64,000 bases of DNA from Thermoanaerobaculia bacterium (GCA_035536275.1 DATLOL010000196.1:1196-65195), one strand, 5' to 3'. Counted from the first letter of the stretch, positions 14,447 to 47,793 are shown. Notes: generated from the letters alone by a model not told the origin. Translations and numbers: made by a program.

Positions 14447-14458
14447 GATTGGTCGGGC
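14447..14458. repeat. 12-bp direct repeat of the tRNA-Pro 3' end (possible att remnant)
   Basis: GATTGGTCGGGC, identical to 25457..25468. Confidence 0.55.
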
Positions 14459-14554: not shown

Positions 14555-14584
14555 CGATTGATATGGGGTGATATCGATCGAGAC
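14555..14584 (+). repeat. Isolated copy of the palindromic array site
   Basis: CGATTGATAT-GGGGTG-ATATCGATCG-AG, 28 bp identical to 24810..24837. Confidence 0.9.
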
Positions 14585-18215: not shown

Positions 18216-19490
18216 ATGTGGCAATCGATCGCCAGCGCGGACACGCGCCGCGAATGCTGGAGCACCATCGAAGAGATCGAGCACGGACTCGACCGGTATC
18301 TGGGGAGCGGCGATGCAACGCTCGATGACGTGACCGGCGGCTACGCCGGCGCCGCATTGTTCTACGCGTACCTCCACGCCGCGAGCGACAACGCCGGCGC
18401 GGCCGACCGCGCCCTGGAAGCGCTGGAACGGAGCACGAGCGCGCTCGCCGAGCGGCAGATGCTGCCGGCGCTCTATTCGGGCTTCCTCGGCGTCGGCTGG
18501 GTCGTCACGCATCTCACCCGCGATCTGTTCGAGGGCGATCCCGGTCTCGCCGGAGAGATCGACGACGCGCTGCGACAACTGCTGTCGAATGTCGAAGACA
18601 AATTGACGTTCGAATTGATCTACGGCCTGGCCGGATACGGGACGTATCTCGTCGAGCGCCTGCCCGATCCCGGAGCAGCCGCGTTGCTGGGCCGCGTCCT
18701 CGATCTGCTCGAAAGCTCACGCGATGCGTCGGGGGTGTGGCACACGGACCCCGGCTGGATGTCGCCGTGGCAACGCGAGAAGATGCCGCAGGGCTCCTAC
18801 AACCTCGGCGTCGCGCACGGGATCCCGGGGGTGATCGGATTTCTGGCCGCTGTCAGGCGCGAAGGTGTCCGCGATCCTCGTCTGGAGCGTTTCGCCGACG
18901 ATGCGGTGCGATGGACCCTGGCCCGGAAGTGGGAATCCCCGCACTCACTCTTTCCGGCTTTCATTCCGGTCGGCGGTGAGCCGTACCCGACGCGGACGGC
19001 CTGGTGTTACGGAGATCTCGGCGTGGCGGCGATGCTGCTCTCCGCGGCGCAGAGCTTTGGGCGCGACGACTGGAGGCGCGAGGCGCTGTCGATTGCCCGT
19101 ACCGCGGCGCGCCGTTCCGTCGAAGACACGCAAGTCAAGGATGCGGGCCTGTGCCACGGCTCGACCGGCATCGCCCACCTCCTCAATCGCATGGCCCAGG
19201 CCAGCGGCGACGACGAGCTTCGCAATGCAGCGGAGCGCTGGTATCGCGTCGCCCTCGACATGCGACGCCCGGGGGAGGGTCTGGCCGGACTCCTGAGCTG
19301 GGTCGACGTGGTCGAGAACGGGAAAATCGTCGGATTCGAGTGGAAGACCGAGCCCGGCTTTCTGTCCGGTGTCGCCGGGATCGGTCTCGGCCTGCTCGCC
19401 GCGGTTACGGACTTCGAGCCGGCGTGGGATCGCGTGCTCCTCGTCGCCATCCCGCCGGACGGCAGCGAGAGCAAGGGAGTCGCTGCATGA
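18216..19490 (+). CDS. lanC: Lanthionine synthetase LanC
   Basis: NLGVAHGIPG, WCYG and LCHG zinc-ligand motifs; ATG 18216 inside ORF 18054..19490. Confidence 0.93.
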   Translation: MWQSIASADTRRECWSTIEEIEHGLDRYLGSGDATLDDVTGGYAGAALFYAYLHAASDNAGAADRALEALERSTSALAERQMLPALYSGFLGVGWVVTHLTRDLFEGDPGLAGEIDDALRQLLSNVEDKLTFELIYGLAGYGTYLVERLPDPGAAALLGRVLDLLESSRDASGVWHTDPGWMSPWQREKMPQGSYNLGVAHGIPGVIGFLAAVRREGVRDPRLERFADDAVRWTLARKWESPHSLFPAFIPVGGEPYPTRTAWCYGDLGVAAMLLSAAQSFGRDDWRREALSIARTAARRSVEDTQVKDAGLCHGSTGIAHLLNRMAQASGDDELRNAAERWYRVALDMRRPGEGLAGLLSWVDVVENGKIVGFEWKTEPGFLSGVAGIGLGLLAAVTDFEPAWDRVLLVAIPPDGSESKGVAA

Positions 19491-22400
19491 GCAAAGACAT
19501 CGTTCCTTCCGGACTGGTCGTGTTGCGCACGCCGCTCCTCCCGATGGAGGAGATCGACGCCTGGCGTGCGGGACTGCAGGTGCCGCACGCGGCGGAGGAC
19601 GCCCTCGACGAAGCGCTCGCGCACGATCGCGCGCTCCTGCGCGAGCGTCTGCGGAAAATCGTGGCCCGGCCGGAGATTGCGGAGGCGCTCTTCCTCGGGT
19701 CCCCCGATCTCTTCGAAACCCTCGAGCAATGGAGGCGCGATCCCGAATCGAAGAAGGGAAAGAAGACGGAGCAGGCCCTGGTCCGCTATTTCCTGCGCAT
19801 GGCGTCGCGTCCGACGCCGTTCGGTCTCTTCTCCGGCTGTACGGCGGGACGGACCGGAGATCGCACGCGGCTCGTGCTCGGAGAGCGCAGTGCGTATCGC
19901 CGGTACAGCCGGCTGGACATGGATTACCTGTTCGCGTTGTGCGAGCACCTATCGCGCGATCCGGAGATTCGCGCGGAACTGCGCTTCCGGCCGAACTCGA
20001 GCCTGTACGAGACCGCGGGACGCCTGCGATTCGCGGAATCGCGCGTGCAGGGACGCATGCGGACGGTTCACCTCGTTGCCATCGACGCATTCGATGCGCT
20101 GCGGGACACGCTTCGCCGCGCGGCGGGTGGTGCGCGTCTGCACGATCTGGCAACGGCACTCGTCGAGAGCGATCCGGATGGCGAGATCACGCCTGAAGAC
20201 GCCGAGGCTTTTCTTCAGGAGCTCGTGGACAGCCAGCTTCTGGTGCCCGAGCTCGCACTGCCGGTGACGGGCGAAGAGAGCACGGCCGGCCTGGTCGAGC
20301 AACTCGATGTCCGGCAACTCGACTCGGTGCGCCTCGCGAGCGATGCCCGCACACGCCTGGCAGAGACCAACCGCGCGTTGCGCGACATCGATGCGGCGGG
20401 ACTCGGCTCGCCGCCGGACGTCTATCGCCGGCTGGCATCGGAGCTCGAGCCCCTGGGGGTACCGGTGTCGCTCTCGCGACTGTTTCAGGTGGATCTGACG
20501 AAGCCGCCGCAGGAGGTCGTGATCGGCGCGAGCGTCATCGATGAAGTGGTGCGCGGCCTCGAGGTCCTGCAGCGCTTCTCGCGCACGCAGGCGGAGCGGT
20601 CGCTGGAAGAATTCCGCGCTGCTTTCGTGGACCGGTATGGTGCGGATCGCGAAGTGCCGCTCGTCGACGTCCTCGATGAGGAGAGCGGCATCGGCTTCGA
20701 GCGCGCGAACAGAGCCGGAGCGGAGGCCTCGCCCCTTCTGTCGGCTCTGCCGCTGCAGCGACGCGGCGAATCAGCGGGCTACATCTGGAAGAACGAGGAT
20801 GCCGCGCTGATGGATCTGGTGATGCGCGCGGCGGCGGAAGGGCGCACCGAGATCGAGATCGGCGACGGCGACCTCCCGTCGCTGGAGAAATCCACGCGTC
20901 CGCCGATGCCCGAGGCGTTTCACGCCATGGCCGTGCTCTGCGCGGAATCGGCGGAGGCGGTCGAGCGCGGCGAGTTCCGGGTGCTTCTCTATGGCGGACA
21001 GGGACCGTCCGGTGCGCGCATGCTCGGTCGTTTCTGCCACAGCGATCCCGCGATCGACGAAGGAGTGAGGAAGCACCTCGCCGACGAGGAAAGGCTTCAT
21101 CCGGACGCCGTCTTCGCGGAGATCGTGCACCTGCCGGCCGGACGGATCGGCAACGTCCTTGCGCGGCCTGTTCTGCGCGGGCATGAGATCGCGTTCCTCG
21201 GCCGCTCCGGCGCGCCGCCGGACCGGCAGATCGCGGTCCAGGATCTGATGGTCACGGTTTCGGGCGATCGGATCCGCCTCCGATCGCGGAGCCTCGATCG
21301 CGAGATCATTCCCAGGATCACTTCGGCGCACAACACGTCGTCGGAAAGCCTCGGCGTATACCGGTTTCTGGCGGCGCTCCAGCCTCCCGTGGGCATGCAA
21401 TGGGATTGGGGAGCCATGGACCTCGCGCCGTACCTGCCGCGCGTCGTGTACGGCCGGCTGGTGCTTGCCCGCGCCCGCTGGTGTGTTACGGCTGCCGAGA
21501 TCCGGCCGATCGCGGAGGCCGCGGGAGCGCAGCGTTACCGCCTCGCGAAACGTCTCCGCGAGACGCGGCGGATGCCCCGCTACGTGAGTCTTGCGGAAGG
21601 CGACAACGAGCTGTTCATCGATTTCGAGAACGCGCTCACGCTCGACTCGGTGATCGAGCTGGTGCACAGCCGCCGGGACGTGACGTTCACCGAGTTCTTT
21701 CCTTCCCCGGACGAGCTGTGCGCGGAAGGACCGGAAGGACGGTTCTTTCACGAGTTGGTCATCCCGTTCACGCGCCGCCCCGCGGAAACACCCGTGCCGC
21801 TCGAATCGCGAACGGCTCCCTCGCTCCTGGTCCGGCGCACGTTCCCGCCGGGATCGGAGTGGTTGTACGCGAAGCTCTACACCGGGACTGCGACGGCGGA
21901 CCGTGTGTTGTGCGAGGACGTTGCGCCGCTGGCGCGGGAGGCCGTGGCCAGCGGCGCCGCGCGACGCTGGTTCTTCATCCGCTACGCCGAGGGCGGGTGG
22001 CACCTGCGCATCCGCTTCCAGGGCGATCCGCGGGTGCTGCGCGAGCGCGTGCAGCCCGAGCTCGAGTCGATGGCCCAGCGTCTCATCGACACGGGTGCCG
22101 CGTGGAAGCTGCAGTTCGACACCTACGAGCGCGAAGTCGAGCGCTACGGCGGCGCCGAGGCGATCGAGCTCGCGGAAGAGATCTTCCACTGCGACAGCGA
22201 AGCCGTCGTGGAGCTGCTCTCGTCATGCACCGGCGACGCCGGCGCCGATCTCCGCTGGCGATTCATGCTCGCTGGCATCGACCGCCTCTACGCCGACTTC
22301 GGATTGGATCTCGCCGCCCGGCTCCGTCTCGCCGAGCGTTCGCGCGACGCGTTCGGGCGGCAGTTCCACTTCGACTCCCTGCGCGACGACCTCGCCAACC

Positions 22401-22690
22401 GCTTCCGCGGACAACGCGCCTCCCTGCTGCAACTCCTCGACGCGCCGATCCCCGCACTCGATCAGCGATCCGCCGCGATCGCGCCGGTGGCCCGCGAGCT
22501 CCTCACTCGTCGGCTGCACATTCCGATCGATGCGATCCTCCCCAGCCTCGCCCACATGTTCGTCAACCGCCTGGCCCGCTCCGCGGGACCGGAGCATGAG
22601 CTGGTCCTGTACGACTATGCCGTGCAGTTGTACCGGTCGTGTATCGCGCGGGAAGGGAAGAGGGAGGGCGGGAGGAGGGCGGTGGGGTGA
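19487..22690 (+). CDS. lanB: Class I lanthipeptide dehydratase LanB (glutamylation plus elimination domains)
   Basis: VLRTPLLP, YFLRMASRPTPFGLFSG, WLYAKLY, WFFIRY, HLRIRF, YEREVERYGG, HMFVNRL; ATGA overlap with the lanC stop. Confidence 0.95.
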   Translation: MSKDIVPSGLVVLRTPLLPMEEIDAWRAGLQVPHAAEDALDEALAHDRALLRERLRKIVARPEIAEALFLGSPDLFETLEQWRRDPESKKGKKTEQALVRYFLRMASRPTPFGLFSGCTAGRTGDRTRLVLGERSAYRRYSRLDMDYLFALCEHLSRDPEIRAELRFRPNSSLYETAGRLRFAESRVQGRMRTVHLVAIDAFDALRDTLRRAAGGARLHDLATALVESDPDGEITPEDAEAFLQELVDSQLLVPELALPVTGEESTAGLVEQLDVRQLDSVRLASDARTRLAETNRALRDIDAAGLGSPPDVYRRLASELEPLGVPVSLSRLFQVDLTKPPQEVVIGASVIDEVVRGLEVLQRFSRTQAERSLEEFRAAFVDRYGADREVPLVDVLDEESGIGFERANRAGAEASPLLSALPLQRRGESAGYIWKNEDAALMDLVMRAAAEGRTEIEIGDGDLPSLEKSTRPPMPEAFHAMAVLCAESAEAVERGEFRVLLYGGQGPSGARMLGRFCHSDPAIDEGVRKHLADEERLHPDAVFAEIVHLPAGRIGNVLARPVLRGHEIAFLGRSGAPPDRQIAVQDLMVTVSGDRIRLRSRSLDREIIPRITSAHNTSSESLGVYRFLAALQPPVGMQWDWGAMDLAPYLPRVVYGRLVLARARWCVTAAEIRPIAEAAGAQRYRLAKRLRETRRMPRYVSLAEGDNELFIDFENALTLDSVIELVHSRRDVTFTEFFPSPDELCAEGPEGRFFHELVIPFTRRPAETPVPLESRTAPSLLVRRTFPPGSEWLYAKLYTGTATADRVLCEDVAPLAREAVASGAARRWFFIRYAEGGWHLRIRFQGDPRVLRERVQPELESMAQRLIDTGAAWKLQFDTYEREVERYGGAEAIELAEEIFHCDSEAVVELLSSCTGDAGADLRWRFMLAGIDRLYADFGLDLAARLRLAERSRDAFGRQFHFDSLRDDLANRFRGQRASLLQLLDAPIPALDQRSAAIAPVARELLTRRLHIPIDAILPSLAHMFVNRLARSAGPEHELVLYDYAVQLYRSCIAREGKREGGRRAVG

Positions 22691-22735: not shown

Positions 22736-24712
22736 ATGATCCGCCACCGCATCATCCCTCTGGTCGTAGTGTCTCTGCTCGCGTTGTCCGCCTTCGGCGC
22801 CACGCGCACATGGGACGGCACCGCCGGCACGTTGTGGAGTGACCCGGGCAATTGGGAGGGTGGCGTTGCTCCGTCGGCAGGTGATGCGCTGGTGTTTCCG
22901 CGCACGGCGGCGAATCTCACGAACACGAACGATTATCCGGTCGATACGGTCTTCCACTCCCTCACCCTCGGGCAGGACAACCAGAGCACGGCCGCCACGA
23001 TCAACATCAGCGGCAACCGCCTGCGCCTCACGAACGGCATTCTGTTCGGGTACTACACCTTCTTTCACATTTCTCTGCCGCAGATCGATCCGGTCGGGTC
23101 GCAGACCTGGGGGGCGGACGGCTATCTGACCGTTGCCGGCAATCCGACCTTGACGGTGGCGACGAACATCCCGGCCGGGACGACCGTGACTCTGTCGGAC
23201 GGCATTGCAGACGTCACCGTGGACGGTGCGGGCACGCTCGCGCACTCGATCAGGGGCCAGGCGACGGTGCACTTCGCGCCGGACTTCACCGGCACGGTCA
23301 CCACGAGCACCTTCTTTTCCGGCGTGATCATCAACAGCGAAAACGCAATCGGAGCAACGGTGCGTGCGAATGGCGGCGCGTGCGCGGCCAGCTGCAACTC
23401 CGGCATCCTGCTCGCGAATTCGGTCGTTGGGACGCTCGGATCGACGGGAGGATTCGTTCAGTTTTCGGATCCCACGCAGCTCTCCACCGCGGCAAATCTC
23501 GAGCTGACTGCCGGCGCGCTCTTCTTCGCCCGGATGACGGCAGCATCGCCGCCGCCGCTCACGGTCCTGGACAGCGTCTCCCTCGGCGGCGCGGCCCTGC
23601 ATTTCGTACCGGTCGGCCTGATTCCGTCCGGCCACACAAAAGTTCTCATCGACAACCAGAGCGCGAATCCTGTCTCGGGCATGTTCGCGGGCCTGCCCGA
23701 GGGAGCACGGGTCTCGCCGGGCGGATCGAATCTGCAGTTCGTCGTCTCGTACGTGGGCGGCGACGGCAACGACGTCACCTTGACTCCGATCAGCACCACG
23801 TCGAACGACTTCGACGGCGACGGGCTCTCGGACATCTTCTGGCGCCACTCCACGTCCGGACAGAACTATCTCTGGACCATGAACGGATTCGAGCCCCAGA
23901 CCATGGGCTTCGTCAACGACGTCACGGATCTCGATTGGAAGATCGAGGGCCTGGCCGATTTCAACGGCGACGGCAAGTGCGACGTGCTGTGGCGGCACGC
24001 GCTCACGGGCGAGTTGTACACGTACCTGATGGACGGCCGCACGATCGTGCAGGCCGGCTCGCCGGCCCTGGTCACGGACCTGAACTGGCAGATCGTGGGA
24101 CAGAGAGACTTCGACGCCGACGGGAAGGCGGACATCCTCTGGCGGCACGCGCTCACGGGGGACAACTATCTGTATCTGATGAACGGAATCAACATCCGTT
24201 CGGCGGGAAACATCCTCTCCGTCGAGGACACCGACTGGAAAGTCGAGGCATTGGGCGACTTCAATGGCGACAACCGCGCGGACATCGTGTGGCGCCACGC
24301 CGTGACCGGCGAGGTCTACTTCTGGTTCATGAGTGGTTTCGACCGGATCGCCTATGACTCGAAGTTCACCATGCCCGACGAGGACTGGAAAATCGTTGCG
24401 ATTTCGGACTTCACCGGCGAAGGGTACTCCGACATCCTCTGGCACAACGACGCGACCGGCGAGAGCTCGCTGTACAGGATGCACGGCCCGTATTTCGCGC
24501 AAGCCCGCCAGCTCGACACCGTGGCCGTCGAGTGGAAGATCGCCGGCACCGGCGACTACAACGGCGACGGAAAATCGGACATCCTCTGGCGCCACGCCAC
24601 GACGGGCGAGAACTATCTCTACATCATGGGCGACTTCTCCGCGACGACGATGTTCGCGGCGCAGGGAGCCATCCCGGAAGTGCCGGACACGGGGTGGGCG
24701 ATCGAGAGGTGA
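22736..24712 (+). CDS. Secreted FG-GAP/VCBS-repeat protein, copy 2 (paralog of 12474..14441)
   Basis: Same architecture; near-identical N-terminal ~80 aa and FG-GAP repeats; both end PDT.W.IER. Confidence 0.85.
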   Translation: MIRHRIIPLVVVSLLALSAFGATRTWDGTAGTLWSDPGNWEGGVAPSAGDALVFPRTAANLTNTNDYPVDTVFHSLTLGQDNQSTAATINISGNRLRLTNGILFGYYTFFHISLPQIDPVGSQTWGADGYLTVAGNPTLTVATNIPAGTTVTLSDGIADVTVDGAGTLAHSIRGQATVHFAPDFTGTVTTSTFFSGVIINSENAIGATVRANGGACAASCNSGILLANSVVGTLGSTGGFVQFSDPTQLSTAANLELTAGALFFARMTAASPPPLTVLDSVSLGGAALHFVPVGLIPSGHTKVLIDNQSANPVSGMFAGLPEGARVSPGGSNLQFVVSYVGGDGNDVTLTPISTTSNDFDGDGLSDIFWRHSTSGQNYLWTMNGFEPQTMGFVNDVTDLDWKIEGLADFNGDGKCDVLWRHALTGELYTYLMDGRTIVQAGSPALVTDLNWQIVGQRDFDADGKADILWRHALTGDNYLYLMNGINIRSAGNILSVEDTDWKVEALGDFNGDNRADIVWRHAVTGEVYFWFMSGFDRIAYDSKFTMPDEDWKIVAISDFTGEGYSDILWHNDATGESSLYRMHGPYFAQARQLDTVAVEWKIAGTGDYNGDGKSDILWRHATTGENYLYIMGDFSATTMFAAQGAIPEVPDTGWAIER

Positions 24713-24745
24713 AGGGTGGGGACGACCAACCGGATCTAGGGACGC

Positions 24746-25428
24746 GAGGGATGTGCGGAGACGTCAATCGTGGCCTCCGCGAGCACGTGAACGCCTGCGG
24801 TGCGATATCCGATTGATATGGGGTGATATCGATCGAGGGCTCGGCAGGCATGCGTAAGAGCGCACCGCACGTGCGATCGAGCTGAATGGCCGTCGATCGT
24901 GACCTCGCCGACCGCGCGCTTCATATGGGGTGATATCCATCGAGGCGTCGGCGACCGTCCGCCCGAGCGCGGCGACCGCTCAATTGATATGCGGTGATAT
25001 CAATCGAAGTCTCGACGGACGTGCAATTGATATGGGGTCATATCGATCGAGACCTCGGCGACCGCGTGAAAATGTCCGGTGCACGGGCCGATTGATATGG
25101 GGTGATATCGATCGAGGTCTCGGCGAGCGTGTGAACAGGTGCGGCGCGACACCGAATTGATATGGGGTCATATCAATCGAGGGCTCGACGACCGCCCGCA
25201 CGAGCTCTGCGACCCTGCAATTGATATGGGGTGATATCAATCGAGGCCTCGGCGGACCTGCAATTGATATGGGGTCATATCAATCAGGGCCTCGGCGACT
25301 ACGTGAAAATGTCCGGTCGACGGCGCGATCGATATGGAGTGATATCAATCGAAAGCCTCGGCCAGTGTGTGCACCAGCGCAGTGAACGTGCGATCGATGT
25401 AGGGCGATATCGATTCGAAGCCTCAGCG
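24746..25428 (+). repeat. 12-unit direct-repeat array of a ~35-bp palindromic motif with 43 or 64-65 bp periodicity
   Basis: Consensus CRATTGATAT-GGGGT(G/C)-ATATCRATCG-AGGCCTCGGCG; unit starts (TTGAT position) 24748, 24813, 24877, 24920, 24984, 25027, 25092, 25157, 25221, 25264, 25329, 25394. Confidence 0.93.
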
Positions 25429-25459
25429 GATATGTGTTGGGGAGGGCTGGGGTTGTGAT

Positions 25460-25536
25460 TGGTCGGGCAGGGGGGATTTGAACCCCCGACCACCTGAACC
25501 CCATTCAGGTACGCTACCAGGCTGCGCTACTGCCCG
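25460..25536 (-). tRNA. tRNA-Pro(GGG)
   Basis: Reverse complement CGGGCAGTAGCGCAGCCTGGTAGCGTACCTGAATGGGGTTCAGGTGGTCGGGGGTTCAAATCCCCCCTGCCCGACCA. Confidence 0.96.
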
Positions 25537-25601
25537 ACTCGGCGTGGATCGTACCACGCGCTCCGTCGTCAACGGTTTACCGGCGGTTGTATTCCGAACC
25601 T

Positions 25602-27464
25602 CTACCCGAAGCCCGCGGCCCAGAGGATGAGGTACTTCGTGATCTCGATGTTCCTTCGGGTGGGCACGATCGACATCTCCTCGATCGCACGCGCTTTGCC
25701 TGTCAGTTCTTCCCGGACGGCCTGCAGCTCACGGTCCCACGCCTTCTGCATCAGGGCGATGTTCTCGAGGTAGTCGGTCTCGCGCACGGACGACGATTCG
25801 GCGACGGCGGTCGGGCGTCCGCTGGTGATGTTGTACAGCGCCTGACCCCAGGCCACGTTCACTTCCTTCTTCTCTCCGCGCGTCAGGGTGTCGTCGTCAT
25901 CGATGACGCGCTGCTCGCGCTCCGAGCGCTCGCGGAGCTGATCGATGCGCCGCCGGAACGTCGACTCCAGCCGCTCCTGCTGGTCCTCGAGCTGGCGGTT
26001 CGCCGCTTCCATGCAGCGCTCCAGGAACTGCGCGCGCGTCTCCCACGGCTCCGAGTACAGGCCGTAGTTCGGGTTGTGGAAGATCTGCATGCGCGCGTTC
26101 TCTTCGAGGAACTGCTTGAAGCCGTCCTGCGACTGGGCGACGTTCTGCACGAGCGTTTCCGGCGAGACGCTGATGTCGACGTGGCGAGACGGCTCGGGCA
26201 CCGCGCGGATGTCGAGCTTCTCTGCGTCCACCAGCGACGCGTCCTGCCACAGCACGCGCGCGTCGTGCGGCGTGATCGGCGCGATGTACGACCGGCTCGT
26301 CTGATGATGCGTGCCGCTCCGAGACTCCACGTGCGTCACGATCCCCTCAGCCAGGATGTACGGGCGATAGTTGCCGCGGCCGCCGTAGACGTAGAGCTGC
26401 TCGAGCGTCTCCGCGTCGCGGCGTGACATCGGACGGGAGCGCGCGGACGGCGGCGTGTTCGCGTCGCGCTCGCGCTCGACGGTGAGACCATGCGCGACCG
26501 GCGCGGCATCGAGCACGCGTCCGGGCACCGTCGCCAGTGCGGCCGTGACGGCCTCGCGGCGGTCGGGCGGGAAGAGGAAGATGATGCAGCCGCCGCCACC
26601 GGCGCCGCACACTTTCCCGCCCCACGCGCCCGCGTTGCGGGCCGCGTCGACCGCGGCATCGATCTCCGGCGTGGAGATGCCCTCGATCAGCGCCTTGCGC
26701 GCTTCCCACTCCTTCTGGAGCGCGGCGCCCGCGGCCTCGAAGTTCCCGGCCTCCAACGCGCGCTCCATCTCGATCGAGATCTCCGCGATGCGCGAGAGTC
26801 CCTTGTCGACCTTCTTCTTCTTCTCGACCTGGCGTTTGTACAACTGCCAGTTGTTGGTGCCGGAAAAGTGCGCGATGCCGGTGTAGTGCAGCAGCATGTG
26901 CGCGCCGAGGTCCTGGATCGACGTCGCGAGCGCGTGGCGGGTAGGCTTACCGGGATTGAGATGCAGCGATCCCAGTCCGCCGAAGACGGGCGGATAGTAG
27001 TCCTGGATGCCGGCGGGGACGCCGAGGAGACGGGTCTCCAGATCGCGGACGAGGAAGATCAGGTCTTCGCCGTCGATCGGCTGCCCGGCGATCTCGGACA
27101 GCGCGCGAACGAGCGTGATCGAAAGCGCCGAGGAGCCGCCGAGTCCCGATCCGCGCGGCGCATCGGTGCGCGTCGTGATGCGGATCCCGCTCAGCTTGAA
27201 ATGCTCCACCGCGCGATGCAGCAGCGCCGCCTTCGGATCGTTCGACATCTCCTGCAGCGACTCGTACTGCTGCCGGTACTGCTGATCGGTGAGATGGATC
27301 TCGATCGGGCCGCTGGAGGTCTCGCAGACTTCCGACTCCGCGAAAAACGAGATGGCGACGTTGACGGTGCGCGAGCCCGGGTGGAAGAGGTAGAGAGGCC
27401 AGAGATCGAGAGTGCCTCCGGCGAGATCAGCGCGCACCGGCGCGCGCACGGTAACCTTGTTCAT
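25602..27464 (-). CDS. GHMP-family sugar kinase (HddA-like) fused to a ~275-aa coiled-coil C-terminal region
   Basis: APVRADLAGGTLD, PRGSGLGGSS, QDYY and GGKVCGAGGGG motifs; unrelated domain from about residue 346. Confidence 0.8.
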   Translation of the reverse strand: MNKVTVRAPVRADLAGGTLDLWPLYLFHPGSRTVNVAISFFAESEVCETSSGPIEIHLTDQQYRQQYESLQEMSNDPKAALLHRAVEHFKLSGIRITTRTDAPRGSGLGGSSALSITLVRALSEIAGQPIDGEDLIFLVRDLETRLLGVPAGIQDYYPPVFGGLGSLHLNPGKPTRHALATSIQDLGAHMLLHYTGIAHFSGTNNWQLYKRQVEKKKKVDKGLSRIAEISIEMERALEAGNFEAAGAALQKEWEARKALIEGISTPEIDAAVDAARNAGAWGGKVCGAGGGGCIIFLFPPDRREAVTAALATVPGRVLDAAPVAHGLTVERERDANTPPSARSRPMSRRDAETLEQLYVYGGRGNYRPYILAEGIVTHVESRSGTHHQTSRSYIAPITPHDARVLWQDASLVDAEKLDIRAVPEPSRHVDISVSPETLVQNVAQSQDGFKQFLEENARMQIFHNPNYGLYSEPWETRAQFLERCMEAANRQLEDQQERLESTFRRRIDQLRERSEREQRVIDDDDTLTRGEKKEVNVAWGQALYNITSGRPTAVAESSSVRETDYLENIALMQKAWDRELQAVREELTGKARAIEEMSIVPTRRNIEITKYLILWAAGFG

Positions 27465-46890: not shown

Positions 46891-47793
46891 TTACGCGCGC
46901 GGATGCGCTTTCTTGTACACCGCCATCAGTTGCCAATCGTTCAGATGGGTGTACTTCTGCGTGGTCGACAGCGATGCGTGTCCGAGGAGTTCCTGGATGC
47001 CGCGCAGGTCGGCGCCGGCGTTCAGGAGGTGCGTGGCGAACGAGTGCCGCAGCGTGTGCGGCGACGCGCCCGCACGCAGCGCGGCGTCGCGGACGTAGTC
47101 GTCGAACAGGCGGCGCACGCTGCGTGTGGTGATGCGCTTGCCGCGGTAGTTCACGAACACGGCCTGCTCCTCGACGTCGTGCACGAGCTCCCCCCGGACC
47201 GCCAGCCAGGCCCGCAGCGCGGTCTCGGCCTTCGATCCGAACGGCACGATGCGCTCCTTCGATCCCTTGCCGCGCACTTTCACCAGCCGCGCGCGGAGCT
47301 CGAGATCGTCCAGGTCGACGCCCACCAGCTCCGAGATGCGCAGTCCCGACCCGTAGAGCAGCTCGAGCCACGCCGCGTCGCGGATGCCGAGGGTCGTCGA
47401 GGTGTCGGGCTGCTCGATCAGCAGCGCGACGTCGGAGGTTTGCAGGACCGCTGGCAGATGCTTTTCCCGCTTCGGCGTGGCCACGGTGCGCGCGGGGTTG
47501 GCGTCGGTGACGCCCTCGCGCACGAGGTACCTGAAGAACGTGCGCAGCGCGGAGAGATGACGCGCGACCGAGGCCCGGGCGAGCTTGCGGCGCGACAGGT
47601 GCGCGAGGTACGAGCGTACGGCGAGGTGATCGATGCGGCGGAAGTCGAGCTGATCGCGGCCGAGGGTGAGGTAGTCGTTGCAGAGAAAGGCGATGAACGA
47701 CTCGAGGTCGTCCCGATACGCGGTCACCGTGTTCGGGGAGACGTTGCGCTCGAACGTCAGATAGTCGAGGAAATCGCCGATCTCGTTCGTCAC
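46891..47793 (-). CDS. xerC: Tyrosine recombinase XerC
   Basis: SPNTVTAYRDDL, RD.A.LELLYGSGLRISEL, HTLRHSFATHLL, LLGHASLSTTQKY. Confidence 0.92.
   Translation of the reverse strand: MTNEIGDFLDYLTFERNVSPNTVTAYRDDLESFIAFLCNDYLTLGRDQLDFRRIDHLAVRSYLAHLSRRKLARASVARHLSALRTFFRYLVREGVTDANPARTVATPKREKHLPAVLQTSDVALLIEQPDTSTTLGIRDAAWLELLYGSGLRISELVGVDLDDLELRARLVKVRGKGSKERIVPFGSKAETALRAWLAVRGELVHDVEEQAVFVNYRGKRITTRSVRRLFDDYVRDAALRAGASPHTLRHSFATHLLNAGADLRGIQELLGHASLSTTQKYTHLNDWQLMAVYKKAHPRA

Follow-up and report, generated by a model that had tools for sequence, protein, structure and literature searches.

Introduction

What a regularly phased array of palindromes is doing beside a tRNA-Pro gene, and what might bind, transcribe or recombine it, are the questions raised by a short segment of a Thermoanaerobaculia genome. 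The segment lies within a 64,000-nt stretch (GCA_035536275.1, DATLOL010000196.1:1196-65195), referred to here as the window, which belongs to a 4.05-Mb draft genome of 197 contigs that is 85% complete. A first-pass annotation, made from the sequence of the window, had proposed a cooperative protein-binding or recombination platform tied to the adjacent accessory element, with a multi-hairpin RNA as an alternative. As described below, the array is a paralogous orphan belonging to a class of non-coding palindrome arrays phased at ~21.5 bp, and this class is normally located immediately upstream of a gene for a small, all-α-helical, basic-tailed protein of unknown fold. The window array most likely represents an orphan docking platform on double-stranded DNA for the cognate helical protein, a prediction put forward tentatively. 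Full-text literature searches returned papers on REP/BIME elements, iterons and centromeres, and no account of these Acidobacteriota arrays or of the protein family.

Organization of the array in the window

A scan of the window identified 24746–25428 as a tandem array of 12 units, all in one orientation (Table 1), with unit spacings of 65, 64, 43, 64, 43, 65, 65, 64, 43, 65 and 65 bp; the number of units, their orientation and the spacings originally described were all reproduced exactly, ten units being clear and two degenerate (at ~24749–24769 and 24873–24899). The cores of the clear units are 22 bp in length. The motif ATYGATAT-N6-ATATCRAT, with up to two mismatches allowed, has 10 matches in the window where 0.02 would be expected, and the periods assigned to the array by Tandem Repeats Finder are 43, 65 and 237. 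None of the periods 43, 64 and 65 is divisible by 3, and the array is therefore not plausibly coding.

When the units are laid in register, a 43-nt base unit can be recognized, GACCGYGCG-ATTGATAT-GGGGYS-ATATCRAT-CGAGGCCTCGGC, in which the palindrome is ATTGATAT-N6-ATATCAAT with arms that can be extended to 10–11 bp. This unit is optionally lengthened by a 21–22-nt module that has no palindrome (e.g., GACCGCGTGAAAATGTCCGGTG) and that in relatives, most clearly in G007, resembles the 43-nt unit minus its 22-nt palindrome. A spacing of 64–65 is thus 43 + 21.5 and one of 107 is 43 + 64, the base period being ~21.5 bp. The optional module accounts for the two spacing lengths, two helical turns apart, to which the first-pass annotation drew attention; both lengths are real, but they are not independent of each other.

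The linkers between palindromes are 6–28 nt long and homologous to one another, and the 21-nt module is common to other arrays; a linker reported to occur twice was confirmed, cgtgaaaatgtccggt being found at two places in the array. A second palindrome described for each unit, CGAG-NN-CTCG, is present in the window array and in those on contigs C103 and C133, but neither the C148 array nor other genomes keep it, carrying CGTGACCCCG, CGTGGCCTCG and similar sequences in its place. The impression that the outermost units are the most decayed holds for the tRNA-proximal unit, whereas the leftmost unit is of a specific type that recurs at the same end of other arrays. A CRISPR was rejected, since its spacers would be unique and 25–50 nt long, the linkers here are shorter and mutually homologous, and a search of the 85%-complete genome for Cas1 (PF01867) gave no match, with positive controls.

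Table 1. Coordinates of the array, its units and its neighbours in the window
Feature	Position	Strand	Remark
Lone palindrome copy, preceded by a degenerate end unit	14557..14578	+	3′ of a paralogous FG-GAP gene
FG-GAP repeat protein gene, convergent on the array	22736..24712	+	neighbour
Whole array, 12 direct units	24746..25428	+	+ denotes the strand with loop GGGGYS
End unit: degenerate palindrome GGATGTGCGGAGACGTCAATC and 21-nt module	24749..24811	+	homologous to the promoter-proximal end unit of the gene-linked array, G000:C150/C103/C133
Palindrome core, unit 2, ATTGATATGGGGTGATATCGAT	24812..24833	+	
Degenerate unit 3, CGATCGAG...TCGATCG	24873..24899	+	splits the 107-nt gap into 64+43
Palindrome core, unit 4, CTTCATATGGGGTGATATCCAT, 3 mismatches	24919..24940	+	
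Palindrome core, unit 5	24983..25004	+	
Palindrome core, unit 6	25026..25047	+	
Palindrome-less module of 21–22 nt, example GACCGCGTGAAAATGTCCGGTG	25060..25081	+	lengthens a 43-nt unit to 65 nt; again at 25297–25318
Palindrome core, unit 7	25091..25112	+	
Palindrome core, unit 8	25156..25177	+	
Palindrome core, unit 9	25220..25241	+	
Palindrome core, unit 10	25263..25284	+	
Palindrome core, unit 11	25328..25349	+	
Palindrome core, unit 12, ATCGATGTAGGGCGATATCGAT	25393..25414	+	tRNA-proximal, partly decayed
Native tRNA-Pro 3′ flank, GTTGGGGAGGGCTGGGGTTGTGAT-like	25429..25459	.	kept in array-less relatives; marks where the array was added
tRNA-Pro(ggg)	25460..25536	-	neighbour, outside the array family

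The tRNA-Pro locus

The array begins ~32 nt past the 3′ end of tRNA-Pro, in agreement with the adjacency first reported, and its other end lies ~35 nt beyond the stop codon of the FG-GAP gene. The loop reads CACCCC on the sense strand of tRNA-Pro, as it does on that of the partner gene at the home loci described below. Although the tRNA-Pro and GHMP-kinase locus is conserved in 35 of 35 genomes of the genus, neither the array nor a comparable tandem repeat is found 3′ of tRNA-Pro in any of the ~28 relatives with enough flanking sequence, which retain the ~25 nt of native flank that here separate the tRNA from the array. The window array is found only in this species at this conserved locus, and a search of metagenome contigs did not recover its exact junction. 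No tRNA adjoins the arrays of the relative G024 or any of 19 metagenome loci of the class. The proposed tie to tRNA-Pro is not borne out by these comparisons, nor is that to the adjacent accessory element, the array class being present in unrelated neighbourhoods as well.

Many relatives carry a second copy of the 3′ ~50 nt of tRNA-Pro 5–46 kb away, the signature of an integrated island. The window has only a 12-bp repeat of the tRNA end, at 14447–14458, as against the ~50 nt seen in relatives, and the idea that the array marks an island boundary was rejected on this ground. The lone palindrome copy at 14557 is better explained by duplication of the 3′ end of an FG-GAP gene together with the start of the array. 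The first-pass annotation noted that no integrase or cas gene is nearby, and this stands: the nearest Phage_integrase match is ~21.5 kb from the array (window ~46936–47445) and the Cas1 search was negative. A promoter and terminator scan of 24400–25700 found nothing, and with permissive Rfam thresholds (E≤1) tRNA-Pro was the sole match in 23500–26500.

Other copies of the array class

Approximately 48 units of the class are present at 7 places in the draft genome, which include the window array and the lone copy at 14557; the class forms 5–6 arrays besides that of the window, with ~37 units on other contigs. The C148 array consists of 13–17 units located 3′ of a tRNA-Arg gene and mixes canonical units with units in which one arm is altered (GATAT...ACCTC); the C103 and C133 arrays are near-duplicates that run off the ends of their contigs and continue into the start of C150; C47 carries a further array of the class, and C77 two units. 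Over 344 nt, the window and C103 arrays share 85% identity, indicating that the arrays are related as wholes. Furthermore, the end unit in the window aligns with the promoter-proximal unit at C150 as far as the FG-GAP stop codon, where similarity ends. A comparison with 40 relatives showed the strict motif to be abundant in this genome and G024 only, and diverged 64-nt units are found in G005, G007 and G017. A metagenome scan added 19 further loci, from soil. Tyrosine recombinases had been among the genes envisaged beside such sites; the search of the genome and its relatives did recover other arrays with a co-occurring gene, a small one, but no linked recombinase.

Tandem runs of the class contain 5–17 sites, and about half of the arrays are gene-less orphans. 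Runs of 5–10 units without a partner gene occur at five or more well-flanked metagenome loci, in varied contexts and often at the 3′ ends of genes. In the 4.05 Mb of this genome there are ~48 arrays with 21-bp periods (~1% of genes), ~40 of which belong to other sequence classes and have no adjacent gene of the partner family. The abundance of gene-less arrays implies that arrays can persist without an adjacent partner, or may spread alone; clustering of the proteins that flank all 21-bp arrays of the genome yielded no further recurrent partner family. A REP/BIME family was rejected because the ~48 units at 7 loci are all direct tandem copies, as opposed to hundreds of dispersed copies often in inverted pairs, and a REP/RAYT system because the unit has no GTAG/CGTC head and the Y1_Tnp matches are located on C80, C93, C90 and C113, contigs that lack the repeat.

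The home locus and its partner gene

In G024 (two loci), G005, G017 and the genome's own contig C150, the array abuts the start of a ~175–195-aa open reading frame that begins MQSDDRETS... or MSSDDRETS.... The frame reads away from the array, whose end-unit side is nearest the gene, and the polarity is fixed, the loop being CACCCC on the gene sense strand. The same arrangement is present at metagenome loci amid other neighbouring genes. The home copy in this genome is G000:C150:134-721, encoding protein P0001, and in G024 the gene and array have been duplicated as one block (a 1.3-kb unit, 95.5% identity). The genes downstream are unrelated and often convergent, so that the module comprises a single gene.

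Within the genus, the protein family is present in 20 of 35 genomes at 0–10 copies per genome, and a tandem array lies directly upstream of at least 26 of the 29 members examined, as counted with Tandem Repeats Finder and by inspection of loci that it missed. The upstream arrays have periods of 21, 22, 42, 43, 63, 64, 84, 107 or 126 and differ in unit sequence. Set against a background of ~48 arrays at ~1% of genes, this linkage is far beyond chance. A profile search across the class detected the family in 29 of 301 genomes and 6 of 107 genera, all from one taxonomic family, with many genomes carrying at least 11 copies, and arrays with multiples of 21 nt accompany the genes in the other genera too. 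In the genome under study, a profile HMM search found members on C150, C45, C32, C77 and C170 only; none is encoded in the 64-kb window, whose array is consequently a gene-less copy.

The sequence GCATAAT, GCATCAT or GTCATAC is located 6–9 nt before the ATG and is kept in orthologues and paralogues, with no Shine-Dalgarno sequence; the C45 paralogue has TTGACA-17-TAACGT in the interval that separates its array from the gene. In the ATTGATAT class, the motif suggests that GCATAAT is a −10-like element of a leaderless promoter situated between array and gene. A promoter in this position, downstream of the array, would leave the array outside the mRNA.

Public records list the partner as a hypothetical protein of Acidobacteria/Thermoanaerobaculia MAGs, and proteins of the P0001 family have no match in Pfam, NCBIfam, PADLOC, PHROGs or among PDB sequences. 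An AlphaFold2 model built with 20 diverse paralogues is all-helical with a pLDDT of 83; the model built with close homologues reached a pLDDT of 61 and gave only weak HTH-like matches without meaning. The better model starts with a disordered N-terminus and four short helices (residues 44–100), which are followed by two longer helices, of 55 and 30 residues, and a K/R-rich tail; a conserved patch, RKHRLG (RKHR), is found on the long helix. Foldseek searches with the pLDDT 83 model returned nothing significant from PDB or BFVD.

Sequence evolution of the palindrome arms

Within arrays, the arms are 0.86–1.00 identical and the flanks 0.57–0.93, and between genomes the consensus arms are 0.91 identical, the loop 0.75 and the flanks 0.73, values that carry some ascertainment bias as units were chosen by their arms. 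Orthologues with 60–78% identity share the palindrome arms, whereas two paralogues in G011 with 71% protein identity have unrelated units; the sharing of recurrent 10-mers, set against protein identity, is a strict measure that quantifies near-identical pairs only. Symmetric changes in both arms are found in G047 (ATTGACAT/ATGTCAAT, i.e., GACAT/ATGTC), G006 (GTTGATAT/ATATCAAC) and G007 (ATGGATAT/ATATCCAT). At the inner 9 stem positions of 124 units there are 37 G-T and 39 A-C pairs, which favours neither strand as RNA; at the outer pairs 10–11, G-T is favoured on the plus strand (94 vs. 29).

Alternative explanations

Docking of the cognate protein on double-stranded DNA is the favoured reading because of the gene linkage, the conservation of the arms and the lack of strand bias. 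Another account, unlikely though deserving serious attention, regards the array as an inert minisatellite or interspersed repeat of MIRU/VNTR or REP-BIME-like character, duplicated from a gene-linked array, functionless and decaying, in which slippage and unequal recombination would resize the array and templated correction of hairpins, not selection, would keep the symmetry. It would explain why no array is found at the same locus in the relatives examined, why orphans are frequent and occur in unrelated contexts, why contigs break at arrays (with C103 and C133 as near-duplicates), why the orphan C148 array is visibly more degenerate, why unit-length classes differ by an internal segment, as in MIRUs, and why most of the ~48 arrays with 21-bp periods have no partner gene. 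It sits poorly, however, with a window array that is as intact as the gene-linked ones (arm identity within the array is 0.94 both in the window and in C103), with arms far better conserved than linkers within and between genomes, and with the strict phasing that has been kept, and it leaves unexplained why each member of the gene family has an array class of its own. Counting against docking itself, orphans make up about half of the class, the protein has neither a recognizable DNA-binding domain nor a fold match, both strands would fold as RNA, and the C148 array includes the altered-arm units.

On another reading, the array would be the template of a multi-hairpin RNA, produced from the minus strand by read-through of tRNA-Pro or from the plus strand as the 3′ UTR of the FG-GAP gene. 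Each unit would form a stem of 9–11 bp closed by a conserved 6-nt loop, to be recognized by a protein or to stabilize or terminate transcripts. The units fold at −10 to −14 kcal/mol and the array surpasses shuffled sequences on both strands (z −3.2 and −6.1); no terminator lies between tRNA and array; the window and C148 arrays, which are the orphans of this genome with full flanks, both follow the 3′ end of a tRNA and are oriented alike with respect to it; compensated double changes (GAGGT/ACCTC, GACAT/ATGTC) occur in some of the units; and pairs 10–11 have the plus-strand bias given above. An RNA is nevertheless improbable, as the 9 inner pairs show no such bias, tRNAs are not adjacent to the arrays at the 19 metagenome loci or in G024, a promoter-like element separates array from gene at the home loci, Rfam gave no match, the stems are not followed by U-tracts, and a period of ~21 bp shared across unrelated units has no obvious rationale in RNA. 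Still less probable is a recombination platform, i.e., stacked tyrosine-recombinase core sites (11-6-11) or att remnants at tRNA-Pro. The unit does have the layout of such sites (inverted 8–11-bp arms about a 6–8-bp centre), the arms and 6-bp spacer fitting the geometry, the repetition of the 3′ half of tRNA-Pro(ggg) 5–46 kb away in many relatives marks the locus as an integration hot spot, and the 12-bp repeat of the tRNA end is present in the window. Against this, no integrase is encoded within ~21 kb, relatives with islands at tRNA-Pro have no such array, and their attachment repeats consist of ~50 nt of tRNA sequence and not of the palindrome; the sites come in tandem runs, where core or att sites would be single or paired at the ends of an element; and the core-site interpretation in the first-pass annotation is not supported, mainly because none of the ~30 arrays of the class is linked to a recombinase, a different family of small, non-recombinase proteins being tracked instead.

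Comparison with known systems

In the sopC centromere of the F plasmid, to which SopB binds, a 43-bp repeat that contains an inverted repeat occurs 12 times in tandem; in the ParR-parC systems of R1 and pSK41 phased iterons upstream of the par operon are coated cooperatively by a small, autoregulating protein. The array matches a plasmid-type centromere at the sequence level in having phased dyads that are adjacent to a gene at the home loci. The units are tandem, in the same orientation and helically phased, and both their length of 43 bp and their number of about 12 recall sopC; the home arrays are directly upstream of the gene for the presumed binder, the window copy having no gene; and array and protein diverge together, co-resident paralogues differing as would be expected if cross-talk were to be avoided. 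Unlike the centromere systems (background in PMC5016525 and PMC3074162), however, the module here is a single gene without a ParA, ParM or TubZ NTPase gene, is chromosomal, and occurs in up to 11 or more copies per genome together with many gene-less arrays, and its protein matches neither the HTH of ParB nor a ribbon-helix-helix domain and has no counterpart among PDB folds.

The base period of ~21.5 bp also recalls a second group of plasmid elements. Plasmid iterons are direct repeats of 17–22 bp spaced at ~22 bp, and additional clusters such as incA of P1 titrate Rep. Arrays beside a gene, together with separate gene-less arrays that could titrate, are features in common with the class described here, but iterons are asymmetric whereas these units are palindromic, and dozens of modules occur per chromosome. 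The contigs that carry the arrays are chromosomal and include housekeeping genes, and a search of the partner protein against Rep families gave no match, nor was a Rep-like winged-helix protein found.

Type III toxin-antitoxin loci (toxIN, cptIN and tenpIN) have tandem RNA repeats upstream of the gene for a ~170-aa protein. They share with the present modules an array upstream of a ~170–190-aa gene, arrays specific to each paralogue and a patchy, multi-copy distribution. In contrast, the partner protein is all-α and not of the ToxN-type fold, with no PADLOC or Pfam match; a promoter-like element is found where toxIN-type loci have a terminator; and the base period of 21.5 nt is shorter than antitoxin units of 34–45 nt, with no strand bias.

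With the MIRU-type VNTRs of mycobacteria and REP/BIME elements the arrays share an intergenic and lineage-specific location, often at gene 3′ ends; length classes set by an internal segment (43 vs. 64–65) are a feature in common with MIRUs, and a palindromic core one in common with REPs (for REPs, PMC3733652, PMC3333891, PMC8266576). REPs, however, are inverted pairs dispersed in hundreds, as opposed to long, phased tandems in direct orientation only; the overlapping ORFs of MIRUs are inapplicable to unit lengths that are not multiples of 3; and the arrays differ from both in being linked to a specific protein family.

A proposed model and its implications

The original proposal of a cooperative protein-binding platform made of phased sites is favoured in outline, since the arrays track the gene for a small helical protein. 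It is proposed that dimers of the partner protein would bind the inverted arms of 8–11 bp on double-stranded DNA. Distances of 43, 64–65 and 107 bp correspond to ~4, 6 and 10 helical turns and would place the sites on one face, permitting cooperative coating of the array by the protein. At the home loci, the coated array may control the promoter of its own gene, which is apparently leaderless. The window copy would represent a duplicated array, inclusive of the promoter-proximal end unit, placed in the 3′ flank of tRNA-Pro, where it could offer 10–12 extra docking sites in trans, acting by titration or as a structural site; alternatively, it may be heading for decay.

In a wider reading, which is possible but considered unlikely, one soil family of Thermoanaerobaculia would possess a large, hitherto undescribed set of mutually orthogonal chromosomal modules, each consisting of a protein and its own ~21-bp-phased palindrome array. 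Each protein would also serve several scattered gene-less arrays, that beside tRNA-Pro among them, with the coated arrays forming nucleoprotein blocks. The module protein would be a helical, basic-tailed product of new fold, expressed from a leaderless gene, with up to 11 or more such genes per genome. The blocks could be insulators or boundaries at gene ends, anchors that organize or segregate the chromosome, or parts of a self-propagating selfish element.

For genome annotation, the class accounts for the conspicuous 21/43/64-bp repeats in Acidobacteriota drafts, repeats that break assemblies and give false tRNA calls. If the reading proposed here is true, there would be tens of pairs of a protein and its docking array, built on a protein fold without a known relative, and the gene-less arrays would extend the reach of each protein across the chromosome. 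The modules would then constitute a natural library of orthogonal DNA-binding specificities, the site variants of which can be read from genomes, and would represent a new type of chromatin or cis-regulatory architecture in bacteria.

Tandem arrays elsewhere in the genome and in relatives

The whole genome that contains the window (G000) holds ∼48 tandem arrays with periods of 21, 22, 42, 43 or 63 nt, five examples of which are given in the table. Their units belong to many classes, and every class has a small palindrome of its own, among them TCCACGGTCGTGGA, TTCAGCA..TGCTGAA and CGTGGCTCTGTAAGCCTCACG. Several of these classes are present at 2–4 loci, and next to most of the arrays there is no helical-protein family gene. 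Inside some of the 21-nt arrays ARAGORN called 'tRNA-Pro' genes of 90–97 nt, which appear to be spurious calls produced by the repeats.

Two helical-protein paralogues of the relative G011 are 71% identical, and the 21/22-nt units of their arrays differ entirely (GGAGCTCGCGTTCAGGCCCAT versus ACGCCGATCTCTCGGGACATCA). At L084 (G048:C4) and L085 (G044:C93), where the periods are 63 and 42/84/126, the array lies in an open frame with the downstream family gene (381–391 aa through both). Where the period is divisible by three, as here, the array may code for an N-terminal repeat domain.

Coordinates of features in the window, in G000 and in relatives (G, genomes; C, contigs)
Feature	Location	Detail
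LanB-type dehydratase gene	window 19004-22690	
12-bp repeat GATTGGTCGGGC	window 14447-14458; 25457-25468	tRNA-Pro end + 3 nt
tRNA-Pro(ggg) 3′ ∼50 nt	window 25455-25504	
Recurring tRNA-Pro(ggg) 3′ end	G023:C64; G044:C135; G007:C18; G005:C14; G012:C3; G020:C54; G017:C207; G024:C41	relatives
Tyrosine recombinase	window ∼46936-47445 (minus)	304 aa
Phage_integrase match / array	G000 C118:1266-1772 / C118:3477-3742	
Phage_integrase match / array	G000 C44:17005-17145 / C44:16366-16643	
ARAGORN 'tRNA-Pro' calls	G000 C101:28758-28938; C40:14-110; C72:1834-1925	in 21-nt arrays
Loci of the helical-protein paralogues	G011 L075 C30:32739-33071; L089 C54:17409-17741	
Array	G000 C101:28756-29405	21 nt x 26
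Array	G000 C5:4147-4552	x17
Array	G000 C75:5039-5365	
Array	G000 C155:48597-48812	
Array	G000 C168:58162-58340	

Islands, integrases and possible recombination within arrays

Many genomes of the genus carry the last ∼50 nt of tRNA-Pro(ggg) again, in direct orientation and with an exact or near-exact match, 5–46 kb from the tRNA, the signature of islands integrated at this tRNA. The window carries a LanB-type lantibiotic dehydratase gene (N-terminal domain, E 2e-166; C-terminal domain, E 6e-63) between its two paralogous FG-GAP genes, and the lanthipeptide cluster and second FG-GAP gene are bracketed by GATTGGTCGGGC. At 12 bp this repeat is much shorter than those of the relatives and is therefore weak evidence for an island. 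The sole integrase-type gene on the window's contig encodes a tyrosine recombinase of XerC/XerD size (Phage_integrase, E 2e-47). Elsewhere in G000, on C118 and C44, Phage_integrase matches lie within ∼2 kb of other 21/43-nt arrays.

Three arrays of the relative G024 (L025, L026 and L027) have flanks in common in differing combinations, the left flank being the same in the first and second and the right flank in the first and third. This mixed sharing suggests that recombination within the arrays reshuffles neighbouring DNA.
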